Below, in pieces: positions 966 through 61,744 of a stretch of 64,000 nt of DNA (positions within the stretch are counted from its first letter, which is position 1; the number at the start of each line of letters is the position of its first letter). Source of the DNA: Vicinamibacterales bacterium (GTDB taxonomy: Bacteria; Acidobacteriota; Vicinamibacteria; Vicinamibacterales; SCN-69-37); contig JAURFE010000001.1 of the NCBI GenBank assembly GCA_030827135.1, positions 430,368-494,367 on the forward strand. The letters run 5' to 3'. The position numbers were made by a program, and so were the translations under genes. The notes beneath the pieces are model-generated. The model was not told where the DNA came from, ran no database searches, and worked only from the letters and a program-made list of their open reading frames with translations.

Positions 966-3900
966 TTAACGCGTCAGGGGCGGCACCGAGCTGCCGCTCG
1001 GCGGCGCTGCGACCTGAATCGTCACCGGGGCGCTGAACGCACTCGCGCCCTGACGAATGCGCACGTCGATCGGTCCAGGTGCGGCGCCACCTGGCACGTT
1101 GACCTGCACGATCAACCCAATCACGCCGTTGGACAACGCGACACCTGCGCCGACATCCCAGGTAGTCGCGCCCTGCGTGAAGCGCACCACCGCGCCAGTG
1201 GTGTCGGTGCCGTACGCCCCGACATAGATCGTACTGCCCGCCGCGACCGGCGCGGCAACCACGTTGAGGCTCCCGTCACGAATCGCCGTGATCTGCGGCG
1301 TGCCAGGCACGGCGGTGATGGTGATCGGGAAGGCGTTGGTCACAACCGTGCCGGCGTTATTGCGCAGCCGAACCGTGGCGGCCCCGAGCGGCATCGCGGG
1401 CAGTCGCACATACCCGGCGGTCGCCGACGACGGCCCGCCGAACCAGAAGCCGTTCGCTGTTGCGACCCCGTTGGTCACCTCGGCGACGACATCACCGGGG
1501 GTGGCCGGCAGGTTCGTGCCCTGGAGCACCATGAAGCCGTCGTTTGCCGCGCCGTTGGCGGGAGTCGCGGAGTTGATCGTCGCTCCCGACACCACCTGCA
1601 CGCACTGCGAGAACTCCGACGTGTTGCCGTTCCCGTCGGTGGCCGTCGCCGTCAGGAACTGACCGGCCGGCACCAACTCGTTCAGCACCGCTCCGACCAC
1701 AACCATGTCACCCGCGCCGTCACTGATCTGCTGGAACGAGCCGACGAGGCGCTCGCCCTCGCCGTTGCCGGACACGTCACACACGCTGTTGGCAAACACC
1801 TGAATCGTGTGCAGCGCATTGATCTGCAGACTGTCGAGCGTGTAGTTGAACGTGGTGGCCACGCCCGCGTTGGACACGTTGCTCAAAACCGGGAAGTTCT
1901 GCCGATTGTTGGGTCCCCCATCGCCATCACCGGCATCGTTCACCGTAATAAAGTCCGCGCCCAGATCAATCGCCAGACTGCTGTTGCTGTAGATCCGGTT
2001 GCTGAGCAATTGGTTTCTGACGTCGCCGGCGGCCGCGTTGTAGCCCACCTGGATGCCGATGCCGTTGTTCCGGATCAGATTGCCGTTGACCGCTGTGCCG
2101 CCCACCGTCGCGCCCACGGTGCCTTCGACCAACCAGACCCCGGCCGTGATGTTGTGCGCGATGGTGTTGCGCTCCACGCGCGTGCCGGACTGGTCACCGT
2201 AGAGCCCGATGCCGATGCCGTTTGCAACAGCCCCCGCCAGCGACCGGGTGATACCCACGAAGTTGCCGGTGATGACGTTGGGCGCCTCGCCCAACGTGCC
2301 ACCCGACCGGATGCCCGGGGATTGACTGTGCGTGCTGCTGCCGCCCACGACGTTGTCGCGCACGATGTTGTTCGGGGCGTCGACGAAGAGGCCGGTCATA
2401 CAGCAGCCGATCTCCGGCGTCCCACCCTGCGGCATCCAGGCATTCCCCAGTGCCGCGTTGCCCGCGGCATTCACACCCACGAGGTTGTTCTCGATCGTCG
2501 TGTTGCCGTTGGCAAAGATGCCATCACCGAGATTGCCGGAGATCACGTTCTCCTTGCCCTCGCCGGGCTCACCGATCACGGCGCTCGACCCCACCACTTC
2601 AATGCCGCGCCGGTTGCCGCGCTCGGCGGTGCCGGCCGCGTTGGTGCCGATCCGGTTGCCGAGCACCCGGACCGCAGCCCCCACCGGTCCGGTGATGTGA
2701 ATGCCCGCACCCGTGTTGCCGGACACCGTGTTACCAGAGGCGGTGTCGTTACCGATGATCGTGCCCGTGCCCCGCACCACCCGGATGCCGCCGCCGGTGT
2801 TGCCCCGGTTAACCGGACCGCCGTTGACCACCGCACCGGGGCCCAGCCAGTTCGGGCCGCCGCGGCTGATCAGATTGCCTGACGCGTCCAGACCGATGAT
2901 GTTGTTCGTGATGACGGTATTGGTCACATCCGCCAGCCCACCAGACTGCTGGATGTCGATGCCGTAGCCATTCGGCTGACCGACGGTGCCGTTGCCGGAG
3001 ATCAGGTTGCCGTCAATGATGGTCGCAGTCGCGCCGTCGTAGAGCGTGATGCCGTTGTCGAGGTTGGGCATGGCCGTCAGCCCGTCCGCGCTCATGCCGA
3101 TGCGGTTTCCGGTAATCAGCGTGCCCGACCCGCCGACGATCAGGATGCCGGACGTCTGTGACGAGGAAATCACGTTGCGCGCAATCACGTGATTGGTGCT
3201 GTAGTTCAGCTGCACGCCAACGTTGTTGGCCGGCCACGTCATCACACCGACGCGTCCGGCGCCGATGGCGTTGTCTTCCACGCGCACGTTGTTGGTGCCG
3301 TTGTTGACATACACGCCGGGTCCCGGGAAGCGGTTGATGCCAAGACCACGGATGGTCACGTCCGAGGCAGCCACTTCGAACCCGGGCGCCAGGCCGAGAT
3401 TGGTGCCTGGCTGGTCGTCGTTATTGTTCGAGACGAGGTTCAGCATGAACCGGCCGTCAAGGTTGATCATCGGCGCCATAGAGACCGTGCCCGGCTGCGA
3501 CAAGCCGTCGATGATGACCGGATTCGAGATGACCGGCAGCGGTGTGGCTGGGGCGATGTGGTGGACCCACGCCCCAGGAATCGCAAAGGTAATCGTGTTC
3601 AGATCTGCCGCCGCGTTCGCCGCAATCACCGCCGCGCGCAGCGACCCTGGACCGCCGTCCGACGCATTGGTAACCACGAACGGACTCGGATCCGTCGCGC
3701 CATTGACGACCGCGGTGAAGGTACCCTCGAGGGCATAGGTACTATCATAATGGCTGCCGGCGAGCCGGAAGCCGTAGGTATCGCCGGGCTGCACGACCAC
3801 CGACGTCACGCCGGCGAAGGCAAAACCTGCGCTTGGGTTGTTCAAGCCGACACAGGTGTCGGCGTACTGCACCAACGGCGCCGTGAAGACATCAAGTCCG

Positions 3901-6900
3901 CCGCGGTTGACGAACGACTGCAGCTGGACGGTGGACAAACAGTAGGAGTGGAAACCGGTCCACTCCCAGTCAAGCCGCACCGCGCCGGCTCCGCCGGCGA
4001 CGCTCGACAAGCTCCAGGCGCCGTTGAAGTTCGGGATGCCGTTGCGCTGATAGGTCATCCGCGGTGTCCCGCTGACGAGGCCGTTGTCGACGAGCGCGAC
4101 GATGCCGTCACCCGTGGCCGACCAGGCGGCCGGCGGCGGTGGTGGTGGCACCACCGCGCCAACACCGAACGCGTCTGACAGGATGGGCATTGCCTGCGCC
4201 GCCGCGGCGGACGCCGACAGCCGATAACCCGCGCCATCCCGATCGATCGAGAGGCCGCCAAATGTCGCCAGGCCGGCGGCATCAGTCAGCACCGTGACGA
4301 CGCCATCGAGTTTGCCGCCAGACGGATTAATCGCAATCGCGATCGTCACCTGCACCCCGGGGGCCGGGTTGCCACCGGTCACCGCACGCACGACGACATC
4401 AGGAATCGGGCCACCCGCCAGCGTATTGGCCGGCTGGGTGACGAACGACAACACCGTCGTGGTCGGCGACGGCGGGGCCGGCGGATCGGTCGGCAGCGGC
4501 GTCGCGGGCGGATTGGGCATCGGGTCATTCAGGTCCGGTGTATTCACCGCGAGCGACTGAATGACCGGGGTCACGTCCGTCACCGGATTGATCCCGATGT
4601 TGTCGGTGGGATTGGGATCGACGATACGCAGCGTGATCTTGCCTTCACCGCCGGGCTCGAGCCACAACGTGGTGTTCGAAATGTCGGGATTCGCGGGATC
4701 AAACGTCGTGTCATCCCCGGCCGTCAGGAACGTCGGGTTCAGCACGTTCGCCACGAGCACGGTCTGGGTCTGTGACTTCAGCACGCAGCCATCCGACACG
4801 GGCGTCTTGTACGTCTTGTGGACGACGAGCTGGGTCTTGATCCCGCCGGCCGTCGCCGCCTGATTGGCGATGAACAGGTTCACATTGAAGCTGGCCGTGG
4901 TGTTGCCGTCGTTCCGAATCGTCCACGTCACATCGGTCAGCGAGCCGTTGGAAATGTCGGGATTCGAGATGTCGGGATTCGAGATATCCGGGTTCGAGAT
5001 ATCGGGATTCGAAATGTCCGGATTGGAAATATCAGGATTCGAAATATCCGGATTCGCAATGCGGACGTTTGAGATGTCGGGATTGGAAATATCCGGGTTC
5101 GAGATGTCCGGGTTCGAGATGTCCGGGTTGGAGATGTCGGGATTCGAAATGTCGGGGTTATAGACCTCCGCATTCGAAATATCGGGATTCGAAATGTCCG
5201 GGTTGGAGATATCCGGGTTGGAGATGTCGGGATTCGAGATATCCGGGTTCGAAATATCCGGATTCAGGATAACCGTCGTCGCCAATCCCCCGCTGATCGG
5301 GAGGAAGTCGGCCAGGCCGACTTCAGTCACCGAGACCCGCACCTGTTCCTTCGCGTTGGTGGACGTCGCGTAGACCGTGCGCGTGACCATCGACCTCGGC
5401 GCGACCTTCACATCGACCGACAGCAACAGCGGCTCGGGCGTGGCCAGGCCGAGCTGGTTGAACGACGCACTGCCGCCGACCGGCTGATTCTCAATCGTGA
5501 GGCGGTAGGCCTTCGTCTGATACGTCAGGTTCTGCGCGAACACCACGAAGCCGCGCGGCGTGTCCGTGCTGAGCGGCTTGGTGTTGCCGGGCGAACCCGC
5601 GATCAACCCCATCGTGATGCGGGCGGAATACACGTTCTGATTCCGCATGCCGGTCTGGCCGTCGGCACAGCCGATCCCGCCCGGGGGGGTGTAGTTCTGC
5701 CAGTTGCCGTCCTTGGGCTTCTGCACGTCACGGTTGTCTGTCCACACCGCGTGAAACACCGGCGCGGAGGTATTCGCAGTGTTGTGGATCCAGGTGCCGC
5801 CCGCGTTCTGCACAAACGCCGGCGCGGGCGCCACGTCGATGTAGTCGCCCATGAACGGCACGGTGCCCAACTGGAACAGCGGCAGGTTCGGCGCGTTGAA
5901 CTGCAACTGCTGCGCTGAGGCCCCGGCGGCACCGCGCAGGTTGCCTATCAGGTACTGCGACACCATCGTCGACGCACCGAACACCGGCACGTCGCCCTTC
6001 GGCGCCTGTACAGCGCGTACGTCGATAGTGTGGCGCCGGTCGGCCACCGCGATCGCATCACGCTCGGACACAAACGGACCGAACACCCGCGAGACGTCCT
6101 GACGCAGGTCGTAATAGACGATGAGGAGTCGACCGCCCGAATAGGACATCGACGGCATCATCTGGTGTCCGGGCAGGTCGGTGCCGTCGGGCTTCGAGTC
6201 CACCGCACGCGGCGTGGTCCACACGCCCGGGATCTTCGAGGTGGCGAGCACCACGCGGGCATCGCCAATGAGCGGATCGGATCGCGCCCCGGCGTAGCCG
6301 CGTTCGGTCCACGCCAGATAGACGCGGCTTTCGTCGTCAATCGCGATCGTGGGATACGCGTTGGTGCGGAACCGATCTTCTCCGGTGCCGGAGTCGAACG
6401 GCCGAATCGAGACCAACTGATGCACGTCGCCGTGGCGATGGGCGCGCTGCAGTTTCGGCTGAATCGCGTCGGCCTTCGGGCCGGGCTTGAACTCGTGCAC
6501 CTTCACGGGCTTCTTCGCGACCTTGGCGCTGATGTCGGGCGACACCGTCATGATCGCGTCGGGCGCAGTGGCCGTCAGGCCGAACTGGCGCCATGCCACA
6601 TGCACGGCGCCCGTGCTGGGATCCACCGCGATGGTCGCGCCCTGATTGACCTTGTGCGCCGGGTCGCTGATCTGGACCGGCGTGGTCCACGTCGCGCCGC
6701 AATCGGCCGAGCGCGAGAACATGATGCGCGACTCGATGTCCGACGCGCCGGTCGCGAGGGTCGTCGTCGTGATCTGGGCGTACGCGACATACATCGCGCC
6801 CGCCAGCACCTGCTGCGAGATGGTCTTCGCAATCCCGGGAGTCGGCAACACGGTCGGCGTGCCCTTCGCGGTACGCGTCTCCGTGATTGTCTGCGCGGCG

Positions 6901-7691
6901 GTAGACACGGCGCGGCCATCGGCCCCCTTGCCGGTCGGCGTCACACCCGCGACCGCCCCCGCGACCTGCGGCGCCGGTTGCTGCGTGGTGATGCGGCACA
7001 CTTTGGCGCCGGCGCGCGGCACGTCCACGGCCATCCACGGCTTGTCGAGGAAGGCCGCCCCCGTCGAACTGGCCACGATCGATGTGGAGACGTACGCGAT
7101 CGGGTCGCCGTTCTCCTTGTTGTTGTTGTCCACAAACCGCGACACGAAAATCGCGCTCGCGCCACCTTCGCCGCGGTTAAACGCCAGACCCGCGTAATAC
7201 AGCAGACCGTTGGTGCCGGGCCGCACGACCGGGTCCGCACCGGCGTGATACGCCTTCAGCGGAGACGCCATGCCTTCCGCGGAGGTGTCCTGCGGATAGC
7301 CGGGCAGGAGCGTGCTCTGCCACCGTTCGCCGCCGTCAAATGACTTGAAGACGCCGAGCCACGCGTCGCCCGTCTCCCCGTCGTCGAAGTTACCGGGGAT
7401 GTCCACAGTCCGGTAATCGTTGGCGCCAGCCAGCAGGTGCAGCGGGTTGCGCGTCGAGGCTGCCACCGACGGCTCATTCTGACGCTGCAGATACGGGTCG
7501 CCGTTGGGCAATGTCTGCCCCGACACCATATTCACGTTGCGACCGACGACCAGGTCCAATCCGGGGTCCGCCACCTGAGCCGATGGCCACACGGCCCCGA
7601 GCACCAGGGCACCGCCTAGCGCGACAAGACCGGCCAAGGAACGTACGCGGGTGCCTGAAGGCTGAACACTTCGGCGTCTGTTTTGTGACAT
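966..7691 (-). CDS. Giant secreted multidomain protein (BNR/Asp-box propeller, Ig-like/CARDB-like modules, NPDIS pentapeptide array, parallel beta-helix, IPT/TIG-like C-terminus)
   Basis: One uninterrupted ORF. The preferred start is the ATG at 7691, preceded by AAGGA 8 nt upstream (the ORF-track start at 7730 is a GTG with no SD). The N-terminus is a basic region followed by the hydrophobic stretch LAGLVALGGALVLGAVW, i.e. a signal peptide. Asp-box motifs SFDGGERW and SADCGATW are present. A long run of beta-helix-like repeats follows (GIxI, NxIxGN). Other landmarks are a DGDGGPNNRQNFPVL motif, TATATDGNGNTSEFSQC and two Ig-like terminal modules. Confidence 0.85.
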   Translation of the reverse strand: MSQNRRRSVQPSGTRVRSLAGLVALGGALVLGAVWPSAQVADPGLDLVVGRNVNMVSGQTLPNGDPYLQRQNEPSVAASTRNPLHLLAGANDYRTVDIPGNFDDGETGDAWLGVFKSFDGGERWQSTLLPGYPQDTSAEGMASPLKAYHAGADPVVRPGTNGLLYYAGLAFNRGEGGASAIFVSRFVDNNNKENGDPIAYVSTSIVASSTGAAFLDKPWMAVDVPRAGAKVCRITTQQPAPQVAGAVAGVTPTGKGADGRAVSTAAQTITETRTAKGTPTVLPTPGIAKTISQQVLAGAMYVAYAQITTTTLATGASDIESRIMFSRSADCGATWTTPVQISDPAHKVNQGATIAVDPSTGAVHVAWRQFGLTATAPDAIMTVSPDISAKVAKKPVKVHEFKPGPKADAIQPKLQRAHRHGDVHQLVSIRPFDSGTGEDRFRTNAYPTIAIDDESRVYLAWTERGYAGARSDPLIGDARVVLATSKIPGVWTTPRAVDSKPDGTDLPGHQMMPSMSYSGGRLLIVYYDLRQDVSRVFGPFVSERDAIAVADRRHTIDVRAVQAPKGDVPVFGASTMVSQYLIGNLRGAAGASAQQLQFNAPNLPLFQLGTVPFMGDYIDVAPAPAFVQNAGGTWIHNTANTSAPVFHAVWTDNRDVQKPKDGNWQNYTPPGGIGCADGQTGMRNQNVYSARITMGLIAGSPGNTKPLSTDTPRGFVVFAQNLTYQTKAYRLTIENQPVGGSASFNQLGLATPEPLLLSVDVKVAPRSMVTRTVYATSTNAKEQVRVSVTEVGLADFLPISGGLATTVILNPDISNPDISNPDISNPDISNPDISNPDISNAEVYNPDISNPDISNPDISNPDISNPDISNPDISNVRIANPDISNPDISNPDISNPDISNPDISNPDISNPDISNGSLTDVTWTIRNDGNTTASFNVNLFIANQAATAGGIKTQLVVHKTYKTPVSDGCVLKSQTQTVLVANVLNPTFLTAGDDTTFDPANPDISNTTLWLEPGGEGKITLRIVDPNPTDNIGINPVTDVTPVIQSLAVNTPDLNDPMPNPPATPLPTDPPAPPSPTTTVLSFVTQPANTLAGGPIPDVVVRAVTGGNPAPGVQVTIAIAINPSGGKLDGVVTVLTDAAGLATFGGLSIDRDGAGYRLSASAAAAQAMPILSDAFGVGAVVPPPPPPAAWSATGDGIVALVDNGLVSGTPRMTYQRNGIPNFNGAWSLSSVAGGAGAVRLDWEWTGFHSYCLSTVQLQSFVNRGGLDVFTAPLVQYADTCVGLNNPSAGFAFAGVTSVVVQPGDTYGFRLAGSHYDSTYALEGTFTAVVNGATDPSPFVVTNASDGGPGSLRAAVIAANAAADLNTITFAIPGAWVHHIAPATPLPVISNPVIIDGLSQPGTVSMAPMINLDGRFMLNLVSNNNDDQPGTNLGLAPGFEVAASDVTIRGLGINRFPGPGVYVNNGTNNVRVEDNAIGAGRVGVMTWPANNVGVQLNYSTNHVIARNVISSSQTSGILIVGGSGTLITGNRIGMSADGLTAMPNLDNGITLYDGATATIIDGNLISGNGTVGQPNGYGIDIQQSGGLADVTNTVITNNIIGLDASGNLISRGGPNWLGPGAVVNGGPVNRGNTGGGIRVVRGTGTIIGNDTASGNTVSGNTGAGIHITGPVGAAVRVLGNRIGTNAAGTAERGNRRGIEVVGSSAVIGEPGEGKENVISGNLGDGIFANGNTTIENNLVGVNAAGNAALGNAWMPQGGTPEIGCCMTGLFVDAPNNIVRDNVVGGSSTHSQSPGIRSGGTLGEAPNVITGNFVGITRSLAGAVANGIGIGLYGDQSGTRVERNTIAHNITAGVWLVEGTVGATVGGTAVNGNLIRNNGIGIQVGYNAAAGDVRNQLLSNRIYSNSSLAIDLGADFITVNDAGDGDGGPNNRQNFPVLSNVSNAGVATTFNYTLDSLQINALHTIQVFANSVCDVSGNGEGERLVGSFQQISDGAGDMVVVGAVLNELVPAGQFLTATATDGNGNTSEFSQCVQVVSGATINSATPANGAANDGFMVLQGTNLPATPGDVVAEVTNGVATANGFWFGGPSSATAGYVRLPAMPLGAATVRLRNNAGTVVTNAFPITITAVPGTPQITAIRDGSLNVVAAPVAAGSTIYVGAYGTDTTGAVVRFTQGATTWDVGAGVALSNGVIGLIVQVNVPGGAAPGPIDVRIRQGASAFSAPVTIQVAAPPSGSSVPPLTR
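4950..5264 (-). repeat. 21 x 15-bp in-frame tandem repeat encoding (NPDIS)6-NAEVY-(NPDIS)6-NVRIA-(NPDIS)7
   Basis: Read directly from the sequence: units such as ggaaatgtcgggatt, cgagatatccgggtt and cgaaatatccggatt on the plus strand. Copies differ mostly at synonymous positions. A solitary NPDIS copy lies at 4688-4702. Confidence 0.95.
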
Positions 7692-7721
7692 AATTGTAAT
7701 CCTTGTACCAGGAACAGACTG

Positions 7722-7751
7722 ATTATGCACATAAAACTCTCAGGGTGCCAG
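7722..7751 (-). promoter_or_regulatory. Candidate sigma70-type promoter of the giant gene
   Basis: On the minus strand: CTGGCA, 18 nt, CATAAT (plus-strand attatg at 7722-7727). It lies in the only AT-rich stretch of the divergent region. It would give a leader of about 24 nt carrying the AAGGA SD. Confidence 0.35.
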
Positions 7752-35843: not shown

Positions 35844-35847
35844 GCCG

Positions 35848-35915
35848 CCCAATCCCCGCTCCTCAATCCCTCAATCCAAATCCTCAATCCTCAATCCTCA
35901 ATCCTCAATCCTCAA
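35848..35915 (+). repeat. Heptamer array A: degenerate units, then CCAAAT, then (CCTCAAT)x5
   Basis: Five perfect TCCTCAA units at 35881-35915, preceded by cccaatc, cctcaat, ccctcaat and ccaaat. The plus strand is almost free of G. The array sits in the rsmE/kinase divergent gap and ends 8 nt before a TGaTATTCT extended -10-like box. Confidence 0.9.
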
Positions 35916-35938
35916 TGCCTCTGATATTCTCTCCGCAC

Positions 35939-39072: not shown

Positions 39073-39512
39073 CCCAGACCCGCGTGGCGGCGTTGCGGAT
39101 GCTGACGCGCCGCGAGTACACGGCATTCGAGCTCCGCGAAAAACTGCTCAAGAAGGAACATCCCCCCGACGACATCACGGCGGCACTGGAGAGCCTCGCG
39201 GCTGACCGGTTGCTCGACGACCGCCGCGTCGCGATAAGTTTTGTGCGCGTGGCTTCGTCGGTGAAAGGCCGCGGCCGGCTCCGCATTGCCCGGGAGCTCG
39301 AGGCCCGCGGCATCAGCAAATCAATCATCCGCGAGGCCCTCGACACACTCCCGGCCGAGGACGAGGTCGACTCGGTCCGCCGCTTTCTGGAGCGCAAGCG
39401 CCTCCCCCGTCACCTGCCGGCCGCCGACCACCGGCGCCTCTTTGCCCAGCTGCTGCGCCGGGGCTTCTCGGCCGACGTCATCGCCCGCGTCATCAAGGAC
39501 CGCCGTACGTAG
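39069..39512 (+). CDS. recX: Recombination regulator RecX
   Basis: ALRMLTRREYTAFELREKL, helical repeats, and its position immediately upstream of alaS. The GTG start overlaps the pilT stop. Confidence 0.85.
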   Translation: MTQTRVAALRMLTRREYTAFELREKLLKKEHPPDDITAALESLAADRLLDDRRVAISFVRVASSVKGRGRLRIARELEARGISKSIIREALDTLPAEDEVDSVRRFLERKRLPRHLPAADHRRLFAQLLRRGFSADVIARVIKDRRT

Positions 39513-39556
39513 GGCCCGCTGCCGTACGTAGGGCCCGCTGAACGTAGGGCCCGCTG
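39503..39556 (+). repeat. Tandem 19-bp duplication spanning the recX stop codon
   Basis: ccgtacgtagggcccgctg occurs at 39503-39521 and again, perfectly, at 39522-39540. A third partial copy, acgtagggcccgctg, is at 39542-39556. Confidence 0.95.
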
Positions 39557-39598
39557 AACTGTAGCGGGCCTGCGTCAGCCCGTTACAACCCAACGGGC
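39547..39598 (+). terminator. Two consecutive GC hairpins downstream of recX
   Basis: ggcccgct-gaactgt-agcgggcc (8 bp) and gcccgtt-acaaccc-aacgggc (7 bp). There is no U-tract, so intrinsic-terminator function is uncertain. Confidence 0.4.
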
Positions 39599-52567: not shown

Positions 52568-55074
52568 CCCTTCACCACGATGCTGATCGGCTGCTCGATA
52601 CGCGCGTGAATCACCTTCACGACCTGTTTGCCGTCGGTCCATTTCTTCACCTCAGGAGACGCCAGCGCCAGCGCGATGTTCGCCTCCGGTGTCGAGTCGG
52701 CCGGCACGGTGAGCCGTGCGCGGAGCTTGCCGTTGACCTGCACGGGAATCTCAATCGATTCTTCCCGCGCCGCCTCGTCATCACTCACCGGCCAGCCGGC
52801 GGCGACGACTCCTTCAGCATGCCCCATTTGCGCCCACAACTCCTCGCACATGTGCGGGGTGAATGGCGAGAGCATGAGGACCAGGGCCTCGATCGTTTCG
52901 CGCAGGACGGCGGCCGTCTCCACACGATCCACCGAGGCGCGCGGTTCATCATCCACACCCATGGGGCGCACACCGCGCAGCTCGGCGTAGGCATACAGCT
53001 CATTCACGAGTTCCATGAGTGCCGCCACAGCCGTGTTCAGGTGCACGCGGGGGTCGATGTCCTGGGTGATGCGGCGAATGGTGCTGTGCGTCTTCCGCCG
53101 CATGTTCCGGTCGGCGTCGTCGAACGAAAGCCCGGCGACCGGAGGTGCCGGCCGGATGACGTCGGTGCAATGGTCGGCGATGCGCCACACGCGATTGAGG
53201 AACCGGAACGCGCCCTCAAGGCCTGTGTCGGTCCACTCGACTTCCTTCTCGGGAGGCGCCACAAACATGACGTACAGGCGCAGCGCGTCCGCGCCGAACT
53301 GCCGGATCATGTCGTCGGGATCCACGACGTTGCCCTTGGACTTGGACATGACCGCGCCGTGGCGCAGCACCATGCCCTGGGTCAGCAGGCGTGTGAACGG
53401 CTCGTCGATGGTGACCAGACCGATGTCGCGGAACACCCGGCTGAAGAACCGCGAGTAGATAAGGTGCAGGATGGCGTGTTCGACGCCACCACTGTAGAAG
53501 TCCACCGGTCCCCAGTACGCGACCTTCTTCGGATCAAACGGGAGGCCGTTGTTGTGCGGGTCGCAGAACCGGAAGAAGTACCACGACGAGTCCACGAACG
53601 TGTCCATCGTGTCGGTCTCACGTCGCGCCGCCGTCCCGCACTTCGGGCACGGCACATTCACGAACTCCGGCACCTGCGCCAGCGGCGAGTCGCCGCGGCC
53701 GGTGAACTCGGTGATGGTCGGCAATTCGACCGGCAGATCCTTGTCGGGCACAGGCACCATGCCGCACGACGGGCAGTGGATGATCGGAATCGGCGTGCCC
53801 CAGTACCGCTGACGGGAAATGCCCCAGTCCTTCAGCCGGTACTGCACGGTGCCTTCGCCGATGCCACGTGTCGCAGCCTCCGCGGTCATCCGGCGGTTCG
53901 CCTCTGGCCAGGGCAGGCCGTTCCACTCGCCGGACTCCACGAGCGCGCCATCGCCGTCGTACGCCTCGGTCAGCGTGTCGCCATCAAGTGTGCCGCCCTC
54001 GGGCTGCACGACGACGCGTACGGGCAGGTTGTATTTGCGCGCGAACTCGAAGTCGCGCTGATCGTGCGCGGGCACGCCCATCACGGCGCCCGTGCCGTAA
54101 TCGCCGAGCACGAAGTTCGCCACCCACACCGGCACTTCCTTGCCGGTGAACGGATTCGTCACCGTGCGACCGGTGTCGAAGCCTTCCTTCTCGACCTCGC
54201 CCGTCATCCGCGCGGACTTGTCCTGTGCACGGAACTTCGCGGCCTTCGCGCGGAAGCCCGCCGGATCCGGCGATGCCGCCGCGAACTGCTCGACCATCGG
54301 ATGTTCAGGCCCGAGCATCACGAACATCGCACCGTAGATGGTATCGATACGGGTGGTGAAGACTTCAATGTCGCCGAAGCGAACGCGCGCACCCTCAGAC
54401 CGTCCGATCCAGTTGCGCTGCATCGTCAGCACTTTTTCAGGCCACTGCGAGAGCTCTTCTGCGGCGGTCAGCAGTTCATCGGCATACGCGGTGATGCGGA
54501 GGCACCACTGTTCGAGTTCACAGAGGGTGACCGTGGTGCCGCAGCGCCAGCAGCCGCCGTCGACGACCTGCTCATTGGCGAGCACGGTCTGGCAGCTCTC
54601 GCACCAGTTGACGTTCGAGCGCCGGCGGTACGCCAGCCCCTTCTCGAACATGCGGGTGAAGAGCCACTGGTTCCACTTGTAATAAATCGCGTCGCAGGTC
54701 GCGAGTTCGCGTTCCCAGGCGTAGCTGATGCCGAGGCGCTGCAGCTGCCCCTTCATGTGCGCGATGTTCGCGCGCGTCCACGTCTCTGGGTGCAGATTGT
54801 TCTTGATGGCGGCGTTTTCGGCCGGCAGGCCGAAGGCATCCCACCCGAACGGATGCAGCACGTTGAACCCGCGCATCCGCATGGTGCGGGCCATGATGTC
54901 GCCAATCATGTAATTGCGCACGTGCCCGACGTGGGCGTGCCCGGACGGGTAGGCGAACATCTCCAGGCAATAAAACTTCGGCTTGGACGGGTCTTCGGTC
55001 ACCTCGAACGCACGGGTATCCGCCCAGTGCTTCTGCCACTTCTGCTCGATGTCTTGGGGCTTATACGAACTCAC
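52564..55074 (-). CDS. leuS: Leucine--tRNA ligase
   Basis: [10 protein letters not shown] (HIGH-type) and VMSKSKGN (KMSKS) motifs. 836 aa, GTG start. Confidence 0.97.
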
Positions 55075-55083
55075 CCGGCTATT

Positions 55084-56016
55084 TTAGTCTCGAAGTCCCG
55101 AAGTCCCGAGGACGTTGATGGTCGCCTCGATGCCTTCCCGCAGGGCATTGAGGTCGTAGCCGCCTTCCGTGACCACGGCGATCCGGCCGCCACAGAGGCG
55201 GCGGGCGGCGTCACCGAGCATCCCTGAGAGCCGGGCGAATCCCTCGGTTGTCATCCGAAGTCCACCGAGCGGGTCCTTGTAATGGGCGTCGTACCCCGCA
55301 GAGACCAGCACGATGTCAGGCTGGAACGCATCCAGGGCCGGCAGCGCCTGCGCCTCGTACGCCCCCAGCACGTCGTCATCGCCGGCGCCCGCACGCATCG
55401 GCAGGTTCAACGTGAACCCTTCACCCGCGCCTCTGCCACGCTCGGTCTCGGCCCCACTGCCGGGCCAGAACGGGTACTGGTGGCTGGAGATGAACAACAC
55501 GGACGGATCGCTGTCAAACGCCGCCTGGGTCCCGTTGCCGTGGTGGACGTCAAAGTCCACGATCGCGACCCGTGCCGCCCCCTCGGCTCTGAGTGCCGCC
55601 GCGGCCACAGCGACGTTGCCGTAAAAACAGAAGCCCATCGCCTTGTGGGGCTCGGCATGATGGCCCGGTGGACGCACAAGCGCCATCGCCGCTTCCCCGG
55701 TGGTCCATGCATGACGCGCGGCTTCGATCGTCGCGCCCGCCGCAAGCCGCGCCACGTCATACGTCTCCGGGCTCGTATACGTGTCGTCGTCAATCATCAC
55801 CGCGCGATCCGCCGTCGCCTCAATCGAATCGAGATACGCCGCGGTATGGATGCGCGCGAGTTCCTCGCGTGTCGCCATGCGCGGTTCGCGGACGATGCCG
55901 CCACGGGCCGCGAACGAGACCGCGACAGCCTCCAACACTTCGCCACGTTCGATGCGTTCCGGATGGCCGGGCGGAGGACAGTGTTCGGAGAATCTGGGGG
56001 AATACAGGAGGAGCAT
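55084..56016 (-). CDS. Histone-deacetylase-family amidohydrolase (AcuC/HDAC class)
   Basis: PPGHHAEPHKAMGFCFYGNVAVAA, DFDVHHGNGTQ and EGGY motifs. The ATG at 56016 lies 2 nt after the DUF374 stop. Confidence 0.9.
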   Translation of the reverse strand: MLLLYSPRFSEHCPPPGHPERIERGEVLEAVAVSFAARGGIVREPRMATREELARIHTAAYLDSIEATADRAVMIDDDTYTSPETYDVARLAAGATIEAARHAWTTGEAAMALVRPPGHHAEPHKAMGFCFYGNVAVAAAALRAEGAARVAIVDFDVHHGNGTQAAFDSDPSVLFISSHQYPFWPGSGAETERGRGAGEGFTLNLPMRAGAGDDDVLGAYEAQALPALDAFQPDIVLVSAGYDAHYKDPLGGLRMTTEGFARLSGMLGDAARRLCGGRIAVVTEGGYDLNALREGIEATINVLGTSGLRD

Positions 56017-56018
56017 CG

Positions 56019-56729
56019 TTATTGAGGATTGAGGATTGAGGATTGAGGATTTGGATTGGGGGATTGGGGATTGAGGGATTGTTCCAGGCTCCGCAAGGCC
56101 GCTTCCAACTCCAGCCGTCCCTGCTCCACCGTCGCCTCCTCGGTGTTCGCGATGTACAGCGGTTCGCCGATATTGATCGCAATCGTCGCGCCGGGTTTGG
56201 GGATCTGCTGGCGGTCCCAGCTGCGCGCGGTCCACGACGAATCCGCCTCAAGATGAAACGGCACAATCGGATGACCAGTCGCGCCGGCGAGCCACGCGGC
56301 ACCGGGCTGCGCGACGCGAGCGGGGCCGCGCGGGCCGTCGACCGTGAAGGCGACCGGCCGCCCTGCCGCCAACGTGCGACGCATCTGTACCAGCGCTTTC
56401 GCGCCACCACGCGACGAGGAGCCACGCGCCGCGCCGTAGCCGAACTTCGCAATGATGCGCGCGATCCATTCGCCGTCAAAATTTTCACTGGTGATGACGA
56501 CAATGCCGCGGTCACGGAAGTACGGCACACCTTCGAGAATGCGGCCGTGCCAGAAGGCCAGAATCGGCACCTCGCCAACACGTGTGAGCGCGTCCAGGTG
56601 GCCGGCTCCCGTGGCGCGATAGGTCCACGTGCCCGCAAGCGCCTCGATGATGGGCCAGCCGAGGGTGGCGATGGCCGACACCTGCGCCCGTTTCGCCCGG
56701 GACTCACGCCAGGCGGAATCTGCAGCCAT
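56019..56729 (-). CDS. DUF374 / lysophospholipid-acyltransferase-family protein
   Basis: PILAFWHGRILE...SENFDGEWIARI...VAFTVDGPRGP is the DUF374 core. The last 20 or so residues (SLNPQSPNPNPQSSILNPQ) are encoded by heptamer array B. Confidence 0.85.
   Translation of the reverse strand: MAADSAWRESRAKRAQVSAIATLGWPIIEALAGTWTYRATGAGHLDALTRVGEVPILAFWHGRILEGVPYFRDRGIVVITSENFDGEWIARIIAKFGYGAARGSSSRGGAKALVQMRRTLAAGRPVAFTVDGPRGPARVAQPGAAWLAGATGHPIVPFHLEADSSWTARSWDRQQIPKPGATIAINIGEPLYIANTEEATVEQGRLELEAALRSLEQSLNPQSPNPNPQSSILNPQ
56021..56081 (-). repeat. Heptamer array B: on the minus strand CAAT-CCCTCAAT-CCCCAATC-CCCCAAT-CCAAAT-(CCTCAAT)x4
   Basis: On the plus strand, (ATTGAGG)x4 at 56021-56048 followed by atttgg, attgggg, gattgggg, attgaggg and attg. 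It shares the CCAAAT-(CCTCAAT)n core with array A. The array ends 4 nt (aacg) before the HDAC ATG. Confidence 0.9.
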
Positions 56730-58576
56730 CAGGTCCGATCTTCAGGCGCGCACTTGGGCTTGAGCGCCTTCATTTTGCCGTCCACGTAGGTCATCAGGTC
56801 CACCATCTGCACCGGCGCGTTGGTGGAGGCCTGCGCGCCCTTGAGCATGATCGAGCAGAAGGGGCACGCCATGACCACCGTGCCAGCCTTGGTGGCCTCC
56901 AGTTGCTCGAACCGTTCCTGACTGATGCGTTTGCCGGACTCGTGCTCCTCAAACAACAAGCCGCCTCCCGCGCCGCAGCAGAAGGGATTGTCGCCATGGC
57001 GCGCGGGCTCGGTCACTGTCGCACCGAATCGCTCAAGCAGCGCACGAGGCTCGGCGTGCACACCGGCATACCGGCCCAGATAACAGGGGTCGTGGTACGT
57101 CACGTTGTCCTTTTCGCCCCATTCGAGCAGGACGTCGCGGGTCAGTTCCTCGATGAGCGACGCCGAGTGCACAGCTTCGACCTCGTAGCCCATCAACTGA
57201 TAGTCGTGGCCGATCGTCTTCACGCAGTGCGGGCAGGAGGTGACGATCTTCTTGACACCCGCGGCCTTCAGGTCCTCGATGTTCTGGGTCGCCAGCTCCT
57301 GATACATGTATTCGTTGCCGGTGCGTTTTGCGACGTCCCCGGTGCAGCGTTCCTTCGAGAGCACGCCGAACGTCTTGCCGCGGGAGCGCAGCAGGTCAAA
57401 GAGCGAACGCATCGACTTCTGATAGTCGGCTTCAAATGCCCCGGCGCATCCCAGCCACACCAGGTATTCGTGTTTCGTCGGGTCGAACGTCTCAAGCGCC
57501 GCCGACTGCACGAACTTGGCCCGCTGGTCGTACATCAGCCCCCAGATGTTCTGTCGCCGCTCGAGGTTCGTGAACAGGGGCGTCAGGAACTCAGGCGCTT
57601 CGCCGTTGGAGACGAGGCCTCGACGGGCACCGATGATGTTCGGCAGGTGCTCCACGCCGACCGGGCACGCCTGCTCACAGGCGCCACACGTCGTGCACTG
57701 CCAGAGGACGTCCTGGTCGTAGACGTCCAGCAGGCGCTTGTCCATCTCCCCCGCCAGAAGGGCCGCTTCGTTCTGAAGCGGAATCATCTTCGGGTTCAGC
57801 CGCTTCCCCGTGCCAAACGCCGGGCAGTTGTCCTGGCAGCGTCCGCACTCCACACACGAAAACGCGTCGAGTACCGTCTTTGACGGCAGGTCCTTCACGG
57901 TCTCGAGCCCCACCTGCTCCTTTTCGAAATCCAGATTGGGAACGGTCCCGAGAATCGGTGACTTCAGAAACACCGTCGCCGGCGACAGAATCAGGTGGAG
58001 GTGTTTCGAATTCGGCACGAGCACCATGAAGACCAGGATGATGACCATGTGGACCCACCAGTTCACCCGCCCGATGGTATCGGTCTCGTACACGAAACTC
58101 ACGAAGTAGGTCACCATCAGCATCGCGATGAAAAACGCGATGAGCAGCGACTCTTTGGAGACAGTGGCGCCCAGCCCGGCCGGCCGAACAATGCCGCGGC
58201 GAATGGCCAGGCCGCTGATGCCGACCAACACGCCTGCGGCAAACGGCGCCAGCGCCCACTTGTAGACCAGAAACGGCGTGGTGTGGGTGACGTCCACGAG
58301 GCCCAACCCCCGCAGCATCTCCGCTGCGGTGTACCCGCCAAACGCCACGAACCCCCAGAAGACCGCCAGGTGCGCGATGCCTGCAGCCTTCCGAGCCGAG
58401 ATCACCTTTGACTGGAAGATCACCTCGCTGACGAACCGATCCAACCGGGCTCCGAGGTGGTCAAACGTGAAGTTGTTCGGCGCCGCCTGAATCAACTTCA
58501 GCCGCGTGGACATCTGCGCCAGAAACCCCGCCACAAAGGCGACAAATACGATCCGGAATGCCCAGACGTCGTTCAT
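56729..58576 (-). CDS. Membrane-anchored (Fe-S)-binding oxidoreductase (HdrD/GlpC-like, two 4Fe-4S motifs and CCG domains fused to a polytopic N-terminal domain)
   Basis: About five N-terminal TM helices, then CVECGRCQDNCP and CTTCGACEQACP, then cysteine-rich CCG-type segments (LGCAGAFE, TSCPHC, PFCCGAGGG, ACPFC). Confidence 0.85.
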   Translation of the reverse strand: MNDVWAFRIVFVAFVAGFLAQMSTRLKLIQAAPNNFTFDHLGARLDRFVSEVIFQSKVISARKAAGIAHLAVFWGFVAFGGYTAAEMLRGLGLVDVTHTTPFLVYKWALAPFAAGVLVGISGLAIRRGIVRPAGLGATVSKESLLIAFFIAMLMVTYFVSFVYETDTIGRVNWWVHMVIILVFMVLVPNSKHLHLILSPATVFLKSPILGTVPNLDFEKEQVGLETVKDLPSKTVLDAFSCVECGRCQDNCPAFGTGKRLNPKMIPLQNEAALLAGEMDKRLLDVYDQDVLWQCTTCGACEQACPVGVEHLPNIIGARRGLVSNGEAPEFLTPLFTNLERRQNIWGLMYDQRAKFVQSAALETFDPTKHEYLVWLGCAGAFEADYQKSMRSLFDLLRSRGKTFGVLSKERCTGDVAKRTGNEYMYQELATQNIEDLKAAGVKKIVTSCPHCVKTIGHDYQLMGYEVEAVHSASLIEELTRDVLLEWGEKDNVTYHDPCYLGRYAGVHAEPRALLERFGATVTEPARHGDNPFCCGAGGGLLFEEHESGKRISQERFEQLEATKAGTVVMACPFCSIMLKGAQASTNAPVQMVDLMTYVDGKMKALKPKCAPEDRT

Positions 58577-58582
58577 GCAGGA

Positions 58583-58588
58583 ATCATA
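58583..58588 (-). promoter_or_regulatory. Candidate -10 box (TATGAT) 6 nt upstream of the Fe-S oxidoreductase ATG
   Basis: The minus strand reads ctcgaTATGATtcctgcATG. No SD is present. Confidence 0.45.
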
Positions 58589-58600
58589 TCGAGAATCGTT

Positions 58601-58779
58601 GTTATTGAGGATTGAGGAGGGAGGATTGAGGATTGGCAATTGGGAGATTGCTGAATGGAGAGATTGATTGCAGGATTGCGGGGCCCAATCCCCCAATACC
58701 TCAATCAATCCCCCAATCCCCCAATTCCCCAATTGAGCAATTGCCAATCCTCAATCCTCCCTCCTCAATCCTCAATAAC
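58601..58779. repeat. Roughly 180-bp palindrome with perfect 42-bp arms built from heptamer words
   Basis: The left arm gttattgaggattgaggagggaggattgaggattggcaattg (58601-58642) is the exact reverse complement of 58738-58779. The 95-bp spacer is itself an imperfect palindrome centred near 58683-58686 (ggattgcggggcccaatcc). Confidence 0.95.
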
Positions 58780-58790
58780 GCGACAGTGAG

Positions 58791-58796
58791 TACAAT
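58791..58796 (+). promoter_or_regulatory. Candidate -10 box (TACAAT) 6 nt upstream of the pntA ATG
   Basis: gtgagTACAATgactccATG. No SD is present. Confidence 0.45.
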
Positions 58797-58802
58797 GACT
58801 CC

Positions 58803-60344
58803 ATGATCGTTGGCATCGCCAAAGAGGCCATCCCCGGGGAACGCCGCGTCGCAGCCACACCGGACTCTGTTACAAAACTTCAGTCACTCGGTTTCACAAC
58901 GCTTGTTGAATCGGGCGCCGGCCTCGCGGCCGGGTTTGCCGACGATGCCTATGTCACGGCGGGGGCGCGCATCGCGTCCACCGACGAGACCTGGGCGGCA
59001 CACGTCGTCGTCAAGGTCCGCCCGCCACAGGAGGCCGAGGTCGACCGGTTGAGTGCCGGCCAGACACTCATCAGTTACCTGTATCCCGCACAGAATGGGC
59101 CATTGGTAGAGCGGCTGATGGCGCGCGGCGTCACGGCTGTCGCCATGGACCAGGTGCCGCGGACCACCCGGGCGCAGAAGGTGGACGCCCTGTCCTCCAC
59201 CGGCAACCTGTCGGGATATCGCGCGGTGCTTGAGGCGGCCCACATGCTGCAGCGCCCGATGGGCGGCCAGACGACCGCAGCCGGCAAGATCCTGCCGTGC
59301 AAGGTGCTGGTGATTGGTGCCGGCGTGGCGGGGCTTGCCGCGATAGGCGCCGCCCGCGCGCTCGGCGCCATTGTTCGCGCCTTCGACACGCGTCCGGCCG
59401 TGAAGGAACAGGTCGCGTCGATGGGCGCCGAATTCCTGCAGGTGGAGATTGACGAGGACGGCACCGGGCAGGGCGGCTACGCCAAGGAAATGAGCCCCGC
59501 GTTCATTGCCGCCGAAATGGCCTTGTTCGCCGCGCAGGCCAAAGAGGTGGACGTCATCATCACCACCGCCCTGATCCCCGGCAAACGGGCGCCGGTGCTC
59601 ATCACCGCCGACATGGTGCGGTCGATGAAACGCGGGTCAGTCATCGTGGACCTTGCGGCGGAAATGCAGGGCAACTGTGAGTTGACGGCCCCTGGAGAGG
59701 CCGTGACCATCGACGGCGTCACCATCATCGGATACACGGACCTGCCCTCACGACTCGCCCTGCAGGCGTCGTCGCTCTACGCGCAGAACATTGTGCATTT
59801 GCTCGACGAGATGGGCGGCGCGGCCAGGTGCGGGATTGACGAGGCGAATGACATCGTGCGGCCGATGACGGTGGTCAAGGAGGGGGTGCTCTCCTGGCCT
59901 CCCCCTGCGGACGTGGCGCGCTCAACCCCAGCGCGCCCTACATCGCCCCCATCCGCCCAGCCGCGCCCAGCTGCCAAGCCGAGTAGCCACGGGGCCCCTG
60001 CGGGGAATACGTCGTGGACGGTCATTGGTGTGGTCGGAGTGGCGCTGCTTCTGATTGGCCTTGGCGCGCCGCAGAACTTCCTCACGCACCTCACGGTGTT
60101 TGTCCTCGCGTGCGTGATTGGCTACCAGGTCGTCTGGAGTGTGACGCCCGCGCTGCACACGCCGCTCATGAGCGTCACCAACGCCATCAGCGGCATCATC
60201 GTCATCGGGGGCATGTTGCAGATTGGTGGGGGCCTGACGTCCGCGGCCAGCATCATCGGCGCCATCGCCATCTTTCTGGCTGCCCTGAACATCTCCGGCG
60301 GCTTCCTCGTGACCCACCGCATGCTGAAGATGTTCCGCCGATGA
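58803..60344 (+). CDS. pntA: NAD(P) transhydrogenase subunit alpha (dI plus membrane dII-alpha part)
   Basis: MIVGIAKE...ERRVAATP, Rossmann motif [15 protein letters not shown] and C-terminal TM helices. About 513 aa. Confidence 0.95.
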
Positions 60345-61744
60345 CGATGACCACGTCGCTTCTTACTACGTCGTATCTCGCCGCAGCCGTTCTGTTCATC
60401 CTGAGTCTGAAAGGGCTCTCACACCCGGAGACCGCGCGGCGCGGCAATCAGTTCGGCGCACTCGGCATGTTGATTGCCGTGCTGGCGGTGGCCCTCCACA
60501 TGGGCATCCTGGTCTCGCCGACGCTGCTGGGCGTGCTGGCGGTGGCGTCCATCATCGGCGCTCTGGTGGCCGCGCGCGTGGCCATGACGGACATGCCGCA
60601 ACTGGTGGCGCTGCTCCACAGTTTTGTCGGCGCCGCGGCCGTGCTTGTCGGGATCAGCAACCATATGGCGCCGGCCGTGGAACTCACCGGCATCGACAAG
60701 ACCATCCACGATGTCGAGACGTACCTCGGCATCTTCATCGGCGCCCTGACCTTTACGGGCTCGATCATTGCCTGGGGCAAACTCCAGGGGGTGATCCGCA
60801 GCAAGCCGCTGCTCCTGCCGGGGCGGCATCTGCTGAACCTCGCGATGATCATCGCGTGTGTATGGCTCGGCTGGGTGTATCTGGGCAAGGGCCACGACGG
60901 CCTGCCGGAGCTTCTCATCATGACGGCCATCGCGGGCCTTATCGGCATTCACCTCGTGATGGCCATCGGCGGCGCGGACATGCCGGTCGTGGTGTCGATG
61001 CTGAACAGTTACTCCGGCTGGGCGGCGTCGGCGGCCGGCTTCATGTTGTCGAATGACCTGCTGATCATCACCGGTGCGCTCGTCGGGTCATCAGGCGCCA
61101 TTCTGAGCTACATCATGTGTCGCGCGATGAACCGGTCGTTTGTCTCAGTCATCCTCGGCGGTTTCGGCGCGGAGGAAGGGGCCGCGCCGGCCGGGGGTGG
61201 CGCGGCGATCACGGGGGATCTGGTCCCGACCTCCGCAGAAGAGGTCGTCGGCCTGCTGAGAGCCGCCACGTCTGTGATCGTCGTACCGGGCTACGGCATG
61301 GCGGTCGCGCAGGCGCAACACCCGGTGAAGGAGATCGTCCAGATTCTTCGCGAGGCCGGCAAGAACGTGCGTTTTGCGATCCATCCGGTCGCCGGCCGTC
61401 TGCCCGGCCACATGAACGTGCTCCTGGCCGAAGCCAATCTCCCGTACGACATCGTGCTTGAGATGGACGAGATCAACCAGGACTTCCCCACGACGGACGT
61501 CGTGCTCGTCATCGGCGCCAACGACATCGTGAACCCGAGCGCGCTCGATGATCCGTCGAGCCCGATCGCCGGCATGCCGGTGCTCCACGCCTGGGAATCC
61601 GCCGCCTGCATCGTCTTCAAACGCGGCAAGGGGGCCGGCTACGCAGGCGTCGAAAATCCGCTGTTCTTCAAGCCGAAGACCAGGATGCTCTACGGCGACG
61701 CGAAACAATCCGTGGACGCGATCCTCTCACTGCTGAAGGCGTGA
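60341..61744 (+). CDS. pntB: NAD(P) transhydrogenase subunit beta
   Basis: Polytopic N-terminal half and the dIII motif [13 protein letters not shown]...[19 protein letters not shown]. The ATG overlaps the pntA stop (ATGA). Confidence 0.95.

Follow-up and report, generated by a model that had tools for sequence, protein, structure and literature searches.

The stretch of DNA analyzed here, positions 430,368 to 494,367 of contig JAURFE010000001.1 (64,000 nucleotides with a G+C content of 65.6%; referred to below as the window), contains a quasi-palindrome at 58601-58779, between two genes that are transcribed away from each other: the gene for a membrane iron-sulfur (Fe-S) oxidoreductase on the left and pntA on the right. 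Their start codons are separated by 226 bp, in which the order on the plus strand is CAT, 6 nt, ATCATA, 12 nt, left arm, 95-nt centre, right arm, 11 nt, TACAAT, 6 nt, ATG (Table 1). Complementarity of the 42-nt arms ends right at their outer edges; at 80% complementarity, a repeat finder gives longer arms of 81 nt around a 17-nt centre. When folded as single-stranded DNA, the region 58595-58785 reaches -70.5 kcal/mol, compared to -25.3 +/- 3.4 kcal/mol for dinucleotide shuffles (z = -13.2). The coordinates and the order reproduce those of an earlier reading of this DNA by a model (the original prediction), which described a palindrome of about 180 bp with exact 42-bp arms in a near-mirror layout.

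The palindrome is present in six contigs (L001-L006) from independent freshwater metagenome assemblies, all encoding an identical PntA protein. The agreement among these six assemblies rules out an assembly artefact, a possibility that the original prediction had raised. There are also variants in the population: in L001 the right half is longer by one 8-nt unit (CCCCAATT), and one contig differs by a single-nucleotide polymorphism in the left arm.

Repeat units of the palindrome

Tandem Repeats Finder reports a period of 7 nt in both arms, at 58604-58635 (unit ATTGAGG) and 58745-58776 (unit CAATCCT) with about 4.6 copies per arm, and a period of 8 nt in the palindrome centre (CCCAATCC). On the G-rich strand, from the outside to the inside, both halves read GTT ATTGAGG ATTGAGG AGGGAGG ATTGAGG ATTGGCA and then decay to units resembling ATTGGGGG and ATTGCAGG. 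The palindrome consists of two arrays from a single heptamer family that run in opposite directions and meet at their inner ends. This tandem 7-nt make-up is absent from the original prediction, which had described the central 95 bp as a spacer that is itself an imperfect palindrome. The imperfect symmetry is there, but there is no separate spacer: the central sequence consists of older, degenerate units of the arrays.

Much of the complementarity between the arms is automatic, because two arrays of the same unit lie in opposite orientation. The outer 42 nt, however, are true mirror copies, because the irregular units AGGGAGG and ATTGGCA are common to both arms. The terminal motif GTTATTGAGG...CCTCAATAAC is found at both ends of the palindrome, and the CCTCAATAAC terminus also occurs on a second array in the window, the one at 56021. 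In the (ATTGAGG)n strand of the repeat, TGA and TTG occur in each of the three frames, along with the Shine-Dalgarno core GAGG, and the (CCTCAAT)n strand is free of G and, in every frame, of start and stop codons.

Table 1. Positions of the palindrome, its flanking genes and core promoters, and the other heptamer arrays of the window
Feature	Positions	Strand	Remarks
Start codon of Fe-S gene (CAT on plus strand)	58574-58576	-	from the sequence
-10-like box TATGAT (ATCATA on plus strand)	58583-58588	-	6 nt from the Fe-S oxidoreductase ATG; presumed leaderless core promoter
Left half, G-rich array on plus strand	58601-58681		units ATTGAGG ATTGAGG AGGGAGG ATTGAGG ATTGGCA, then degenerate units; outer end 24 nt from Fe-S start codon
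Left perfect arm, 42 nt	58601-58642		exact reverse complement of 58738-58779
Right half, C-rich array on plus strand	58683-58779		inner units CCCCCAAT/CCCCAAT, outer units CCTCAAT, end CCTCAATAAC; outer end 23 nt from pntA ATG
Right perfect arm, 42 nt	58738-58779		exact reverse complement of left arm
-10-like box TACAAT	58791-58796	+	6 nt from pntA ATG (58803); presumed leaderless core promoter
Membrane Fe-S oxidoreductase gene, 615 aa	56729-58576	-	CCG and 4Fe-4S dicluster domains; leads operon with DUF374 and deacetylase-family genes
pntA	58803-60344	+	AlaDh_PNT_N/C and PNTB_4TM domains
pntB	60341-61744	+	directly after pntA
Second array	56021-56084		sense (minus) strand (CCTCAAT)4 AAC G ATG; directly upstream of deacetylase-family gene, 4 nt before its ATG
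Third array, (CCTCAAT)5 and degenerate units	35847-35916		95-bp divergent region between RsmE-like methyltransferase gene (-) and Ser/Thr kinase gene (+, ATG 35939)

The orthologous site and its core promoters

The site between the two genes differs greatly among close relatives. L125 (GCA_016871335.1) is a metagenome-assembled genome (MAG) of a lake Acidimicrobiia bacterium, and its Fe-S protein falls into the same 90% cluster as that of the window, as does the one encoded by L126; L127 has 90% PntA identity. Both L125 and L127 keep the synteny pntBA <-> Fe-S-DUF374-deacetylase-LeuRS, and both have no array: the interval between their start codons is CAT-GGAGGA-ATCATA-ACTGGGCCGTGAG-TACAAT-GTCCCG-ATG, which places the start codons 37 bp apart and the -10 boxes 13 bp apart. 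L126 has at the same site a one-directional array, (CCCCCAT)4(CCTCCAT)8, whose C-rich strand is the pntA sense strand. L128 (2683-2743) and L129 (3931-3991), both with 82% PntA identity, have an unrelated perfect palindrome with 23-nt arms (ATACGACCTCAGAGGTCGTTTCC) and a spacer of about 15 nt, touching both -10 boxes, and L131 (73% PntA identity) has a remnant only (GAGGATGGAGGATCGG). Other members of the cluster have N-terminal over-extensions (MEDGG...), which indicate GGAGGAT-type arrays in further relatives.

The core of the L128/L129 palindrome, CGACCTC[AT]GAGGTCG, occurs again in L129 at about 404-440, some 3.5 kb from the orthologous site. What we see of this palindrome suggests a dispersed element resembling the repetitive extragenic palindromic (REP) sequences, or else an operator.

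The palindrome is not conserved at its orthologous position, since L125 and L127 lack it and the other relatives (L126, L128/L129 and L131) have different sequences there. From this comparison it appears to be a lineage-specific addition, at a site that is permissive and changes fast, rather than a conserved operator. The original prediction had proposed a shared symmetric upstream element for two redox functions. In such an element, a transcription factor or nucleoid protein would bind both arms and co-regulate the Fe-S operon and pntAB. In favor of such an element are the perfect symmetry over 42 bp, which gives both promoters identical DNA from about -24, and the other palindrome that reaches both -10 boxes in L128/L129, from which symmetric elements may be tolerated or useful at this site. 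Nevertheless the element is missing from the closest relatives, its place is taken in L126 by a one-directional array of another unit, the number of array units varies, and the same repeat lies beside genes for a kinase, a methyltransferase and a deacetylase-family protein and, in many phyla, beside many unrelated ones. We therefore regard co-regulation through the arms as quite improbable, and the idea of a symmetric redox operator gives way at this locus to a documented class of repeat DNA.

The core promoters that flank the site are conserved. Among relatives at 72-90% PntA identity, all those compared have a TANNNT box 6-7 nt before the pntA ATG; it is GAGTACAAT in L125, L126, L127, L130 and L131, and TATCAT in L128 and L129. 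On the other side, TATGAT-N6-ATG is kept upstream of the Fe-S gene in L125 and L127, with TATCAT-N6-ATG in L126 and a TANNNT box 7-9 nt upstream in more distant relatives. We found no Shine-Dalgarno sequence in the 37-bp intergenic version. In the window as a whole, 6 of the 48 called starts have TANNNT 5-8 nt upstream, compared to 0.44% of random positions (about 30-fold). Taken together, the conserved spacing, its retention in relatives with a 37-bp gap and the enrichment at starts agree with the original prediction that the Fe-S gene and pntA are leaderless; judged from sequence, both very probably are. The two flanking boxes, as distinct from the palindrome, have the sequence of a leaderless actinobacterial core promoter.

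Because leaderless transcription would start at each start codon, the palindrome, situated some 24 to 200 bp upstream of both, is probably not part of either mRNA, as the original prediction had also supposed. TANNNT is also found 5-7 nt upstream of several operon-leading genes in the window (at 55074, 61847, 46921, 7801 and others, including those for LeuRS and an M24 peptidase), with no Shine-Dalgarno-like motif, which suggests that many transcripts of this genome are leaderless. The LeuRS and Fe-S proteins of the window cluster at 90% identity with NCBI proteins whose name is 'MAG: Acidimicrobiia bacterium', and by the names in these clusters the host appears to be a freshwater Acidimicrobiia bacterium. 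This identity, together with the enrichment of TANNNT at starts, fits leaderless transcription.

These promoters bear on whether the palindrome could act as a transcribed, structured RNA, for example as a hairpin leader, a terminator or insulator, or a GGA-rich protein sponge, made by read-through or from an upstream promoter. Elsewhere, paired arrays of this kind lie between convergent or co-directional genes, where they are necessarily transcribed and would form hairpins of 28-60 bp from a stop to a start, and most such repeats in Xanthomonas are transcribed (Rehm et al. 2015, PMC4692102). At the site studied here, in contrast, both neighbors are transcribed away from the palindrome, and conserved -10 boxes lie 6 nt from each ATG. 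Pattern scans found no sigma-70-like promoter in the palindrome region and no intrinsic terminator in or beside it (the sole terminator-like match is within the Fe-S coding sequence), there is no U-tract after the hairpin, and Rfam gave no family at gathering score in the whole window. An RNA role for the palindrome is extremely unlikely on this evidence. We also rejected a small RNA that titrates CsrA/RsmA: no promoter or terminator of its own and no Rfam match was found, and its GGA motifs would be buried in a stem of 40-80 bp, so the doubt that the original prediction expressed about a CsrA role was reasonable.

The change in spacing at the site may itself have a local effect. Two RNA polymerases could hardly bind together in an array-free relative, where the boxes are 13 bp apart. 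In the window, about 190 bp of repeat DNA would separate leaderless promoters that otherwise overlap, putting the boxes about 200 bp apart and giving both promoters the same upstream DNA from about -24. The palindrome would be dispensable for basic expression of either operon. One orthologous site exists in four states among close relatives with its leaderless core promoters unchanged, which makes it a natural experiment on how arrays affect promoter output.

A further proposal is that functional non-B DNA (a cruciform, slipped DNA, a G-quadruplex or an i-motif) forms under divergent supercoiling and insulates or tunes the two promoters. It draws on the energy of the intrastrand hairpin, on the G4Hunter score of the inner CCCCCAAT/GGGGGATT units (2.28), on the formation of G-quadruplexes and i-motifs in vitro by related repeats (PMC4692102), and on the 13-bp spacing of the boxes in the array-free relative, since their separation must alter promoter competition. 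On the other hand, the GAGGATT arms have GG tracts only and a G4Hunter score of 0.79, under the usual threshold, which makes G-quadruplex formation weak as a unifying property. Nucleation of a cruciform should be hindered by the incomplete complementarity of the central 95 nt. The structure is missing from close relatives, and repeats of this kind are under-represented between divergent genes (Rehm et al., PMC4692102). We consider a non-B role unlikely.

Distribution and polarity of the heptamer arrays

There are three heptamer array loci in the window, all at gene boundaries, and a relative MAG has arrays on further contigs as well (L039, L125). The second array lies at the junction between the DUF374 and deacetylase-family genes. 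The DUF374 open reading frame (ORF; 56019-56729, minus strand) runs through it, acquiring a tail of about 20 amino acids (...SLNPQSPNPNPQSSILNPQ*), and ends at a TAA within CCTCAATAAC, 2 nt ahead of the ATG of the deacetylase-family gene (55084-56016, minus strand). In relatives without this array, the DUF374 stop codon is a few nucleotides from the deacetylase-gene ATG or overlaps it. Genomes that share the array at this junction have different states at the site upstream of pntA.

The window also contains other repeats. One of them, small, intergenic and of a different kind, is a 16-19-nt unit (CCGTACGTAGGGCCCGCTG) in three tandem copies at a gene end (39502-39564). GGGCCCGCT…AGCGGGCC comes next in inverted form, and TACAAT lies some 50 nt further on, 11 nt ahead of an ATG. 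Within the ORF at 966-7730 (minus strand, 2254 aa), which encodes a very large, apparently secreted protein, a 15-nt tandem repeat at 4947-5265 has about 21 copies and encodes the pentapeptide NPDIS.

To see how widespread the repeat is, we searched for exact (CCTCAAT)3, with one genome per species, and obtained more than 118 stretches among the matches listed, to which the counts of array loci and pairs below also refer. None of these comes from the window's own genome; blastn gave short array matches and gene fragments with about 65-71% identity. The matches are spread over more than 10 phyla, including Acidobacteriota (many Thermoanaerobaculia), Betaproteobacteria (Gallionella, Burkholderiales), Bacteroidota, Planctomycetota, Verrucomicrobiota, Cyanobacteria (Anabaena, Oscillatoria, Microcoleus and Pelatocladus), Acidimicrobiia, Gemmatimonadota, Armatimonadota and Campylobacterota, at loci whose G+C content ranges from 35% to 73%. 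In viral contigs, (CCTCAAT)3 has 9 matches, compared to 2 and 3 for composition-matched permutations and 29 (L216-L244) for the reversed unit TAACTCC, whose G-rich strand is GGAGTTA. CCTCAAT arrays are enriched, yet this is one of several favored units. We rejected phage as a vector of the repeat, because there are only these 9 viral matches and nothing points to phage transfer. A literature search on the unit sequence itself returned only unrelated primer and plant matches.

Where two arrays lie close together, they show a strict polarity. We found 17 loci (including the window) with a G-rich array followed by a C-rich array within 130 nt, and none with the opposite order; under a permissive definition the ratio is 28 to 1. 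The same is true of TAACTCC pairs in viral contigs, with 7 in the G-rich-then-C-rich order and 0 in the other. The spacers between paired arrays are 13-87 nt long and unrelated in sequence, and the lengths of the arms vary in 7-nt steps. Most paired arms have four units, and their irregular units are not mirrored, unlike those of the window palindrome. The palindrome arms lack a run of four perfect units, which the array at 56021 and most Thermoanaerobaculia arms do have. In pairs from Thermoanaerobaculia and other Acidobacteriota (L008, L018, L030, L064, L070, L100 and L101), each arm very often comprises exactly four ATTGAGG units; these pairs lie between a stop codon, which often overlaps the TGA of the array, and the next gene, and their length fits the four-unit preference known from Xanthomonas.

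We then asked how single arrays are oriented relative to genes, using a simple and crude GC-frame gene caller with the arrays masked, which recovers the known genes of the window. Across 59 usable single arrays, the median distance to a gene boundary is 17 nt for the G-rich strand's 5' end and 99 nt for its 3' end. In 45 of the 59 the boundary is nearer to the 5' end (binomial P = 6.5e-5); 40 of the 5' ends, but only 9 of the 3' ends, have a boundary no more than 30 nt away. At stop codons the median falls to 4 nt, and the stop is often supplied by the array itself. Both palindrome arms obey this gene-boundary rule (23-24 nt, with the C-rich strand on the sense side), and so does the array at 56021. 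The polarity of pairs follows from the rule, because on the top strand an array belonging to the left gene is G-rich and one belonging to the right gene is C-rich.

The same data bear on the possibility that the palindrome is a mobile element, inserted between the two genes like a miniature inverted-repeat transposable element (MITE) or a REP sequence. It has a sharp outer boundary, and the GTTATTGAGG...CCTCAATAAC motif at both of its ends also ends the 56021 array and a pair in Solibacteraceae (L031). The site has about 190 extra bp relative to L125, and in L128/L129 it holds a REP-like palindrome that occurs again elsewhere in L129. However, the flanks (CGTT / GCGA) show no target-site duplication and differ from the empty site, so there is no clean insertion. 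Outside this locus, which L001-L006 also represent, the 42-nt arm is absent from the window and the compared loci, and the variable, 7-nt-stepped arms and the unrelated spacers of the 16 other pairs do not fit a transposed unit; repeats of this type have no association with mobile elements (Rehm et al., PMC4692102). We rejected a MITE on these grounds, and consider any form of mobile insertion very unlikely.

Proposed origin of the palindrome and its relation to known repeats

We think it likely that the palindrome is an inverted ('convergent') pair of heptameric simple sequence repeat (SSR) arrays, a slippage-prone member of a dispersed repeat family located between two back-to-back core promoters, and not a specific operator. 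Four observations carry this explanation: the heptamers are tandem and in inverted orientation, the population is polymorphic by one unit, close relatives have no array or a different sequence, and the flanking core promoters are conserved. The arrays would arise and change by replication slippage, and at this locus the outer 42 bp would additionally have been made identical by inverted duplication or by conversion between the arms. They would persist where their site and orientation are tolerated, with the G-free, ORF-neutral strand on the sense side of gene starts and the strand carrying TGA in all frames following the ends of genes. Directly behind a stop codon the G-rich strand would do no harm; directly ahead of a start codon it could be disruptive. 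The C-rich strand would be unstructured before a start, and would extend any ORF that enters it, as exemplified by the DUF374 read-through at 56021.

Several points weigh against this explanation. Independent slippage is ruled out as the sole source of the symmetry, because it could not have produced the irregular units common to both arms over 42 nt, and other pairs are not mirrored in this way; since the outer 42 nt are mirrored, an extra step of inverted duplication or conversion must be assumed. Pairs make up about 14-24% of array loci, far above what independent placement would give, and pairing may itself be favored. The argument from orientation acts at the level of RNA or translation, and the palindrome arrays appear to be upstream of the transcription starts. 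The boundary statistics depend on the crude GC-frame gene calls. Finally, the proximal 33 nt (ATCCTCAATCCTCAATCCTCAATCCTCAATAAC) of the array at the deacetylase junction are identical in the window, L125 and L126, with 74-83% identity in the flanking coding DNA and differences among the three in the distal units. The gene-proximal units are therefore constrained or homogenized to a consensus, and the heptamer family may not be neutral.

A broader idea is that heptamer arrays with a 4-nt Shine-Dalgarno-like core (GAGGATT, GGAGTTA) are a pan-bacterial 'punctuation' of gene boundaries with strict polarity, in which the unit is kept by a conserved machine (the ribosome, S1 or Rho) and not by descent. 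We regard this as improbable. If it were true, the arrays would supply TGA in three frames after stop codons and a G-free, structure-free, ORF-neutral strand before start codons, and paired arrays would form a hairpin from the stop of one gene to the start of the next; the window palindrome would then be such an element recruited to a divergent, leaderless context.

Among known repeats, REP sequences with their bacterial interspersed mosaic elements (BIMEs) and Correia-type palindromes are similar to the palindrome in being dispersed and intergenic, in forming stable hairpins, in occupying permissive sites, and in being gained and lost between relatives. They have, however, a fixed sequence with heads or terminal inverted repeats and have cognate transposases, whereas the sequence described here consists of tandem 7-nt units and shows none of these features (no search for a REP-associated tyrosine transposase, RAYT, was made). 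We rejected a REP/BIME assignment because the 7-8-nt tandem units vary in number and are not a fixed sequence, again with no search made for a RAYT gene.

TAACTGA intergenic direct repeats lie just upstream of start codons in marine Beggiatoaceae, Cyanobacteria and Bacteroidetes, with a patchy spread across phyla (MacGregor 2015, PMC4679880). As quoted in that paper, Mrazek et al. 2007 found that, in most genomes, heptanucleotides outnumber other long simple repeats, and considered polymerase slippage as a possible cause. Like TAACTGA arrays, those of the CCTCAAT family can lie a few nucleotides upstream of starts (4 nt before the ATG for the array at 56021), and their neighboring genes have no functional theme. 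They differ in their unit, and TAACTGA arrays are almost all direct (one indirect repeat in 170 sets) and have a proposed role in the 5' untranslated region, whereas the genes beside the palindrome are apparently leaderless.

At its centre, the palindrome has units (CCCCAAT/CCCCCAAT) identical to that of the cyanobacterial repeat STRR1 (short tandemly repeated repetitive sequence). The name STRR1 and the unit CCCCA(A/G)T reportedly go back to work by Mazel and colleagues in 1990, and we take the Nostoc repeat GGGGA(C/T)T to be the STRR1 unit. STRR1 is described as a marker of heterocystous cyanobacteria, unlike the repeats reported here, which occur in an apparent actinobacterium and, as CCTCAAT, in more than 10 phyla. 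Three tandemly repeated heptanucleotides are mentioned for Calothrix PCC 7601 in the part of the earlier literature cited by Rehm et al. (PMC4692102).

The closest parallel is the set of dispersed intergenic heptamer arrays described by Rehm et al. 2015 (PMC4692102), with the units GGGAATC in Xanthomonas and GGGGA(C/T)T in Nostoc PCC 7120 and a preference for four units. These authors found 70-75 inverted pairs per Xanthomonas genome 'with convergent orientation' that are capable of forming a stem-loop or cruciform, array lengths that vary between close relatives, no link to mobile elements, under-representation between divergent ORFs, and a gene-boundary rule in both Xanthomonas and Nostoc; a function was not identified. 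The repeats described here likewise have 7-nt units of a G/C-rich tetramer and an A/T-rich trimer with a strong strand asymmetry, and are intergenic in a genome of about 65% G+C. The palindrome has head-to-tail units of 7 nt, varies in unit number and sequence among relatives at its site, has its G-rich strand as the non-coding one upstream of both starts and within the distance of about 50 nt from a neighboring ORF that is typical of the class (which after stops has it as the coding strand), and has the convergent orientation of the pairs. It differs in its unit (GAGGATT, which has GG tracts and a poor G-quadruplex potential), in its small-genome freshwater Acidimicrobiia host, in its position between divergent genes, and in its long, mirrored arms with 42 perfect nucleotides and a whole spacer of decayed units. 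Heptameric intergenic repeats have so far been described in only a few genera. Our results add the exact CCTCAAT unit in more than 10 phyla, the near-absolute G-rich-then-C-rich polarity of inverted pairs, and the finding that the boundary rule of Xanthomonas and Nostoc holds for another unit across phyla. By its architecture and positional rules, then, the palindrome appears to belong with the heptameric repeats of the Xanthomonas/Nostoc type.

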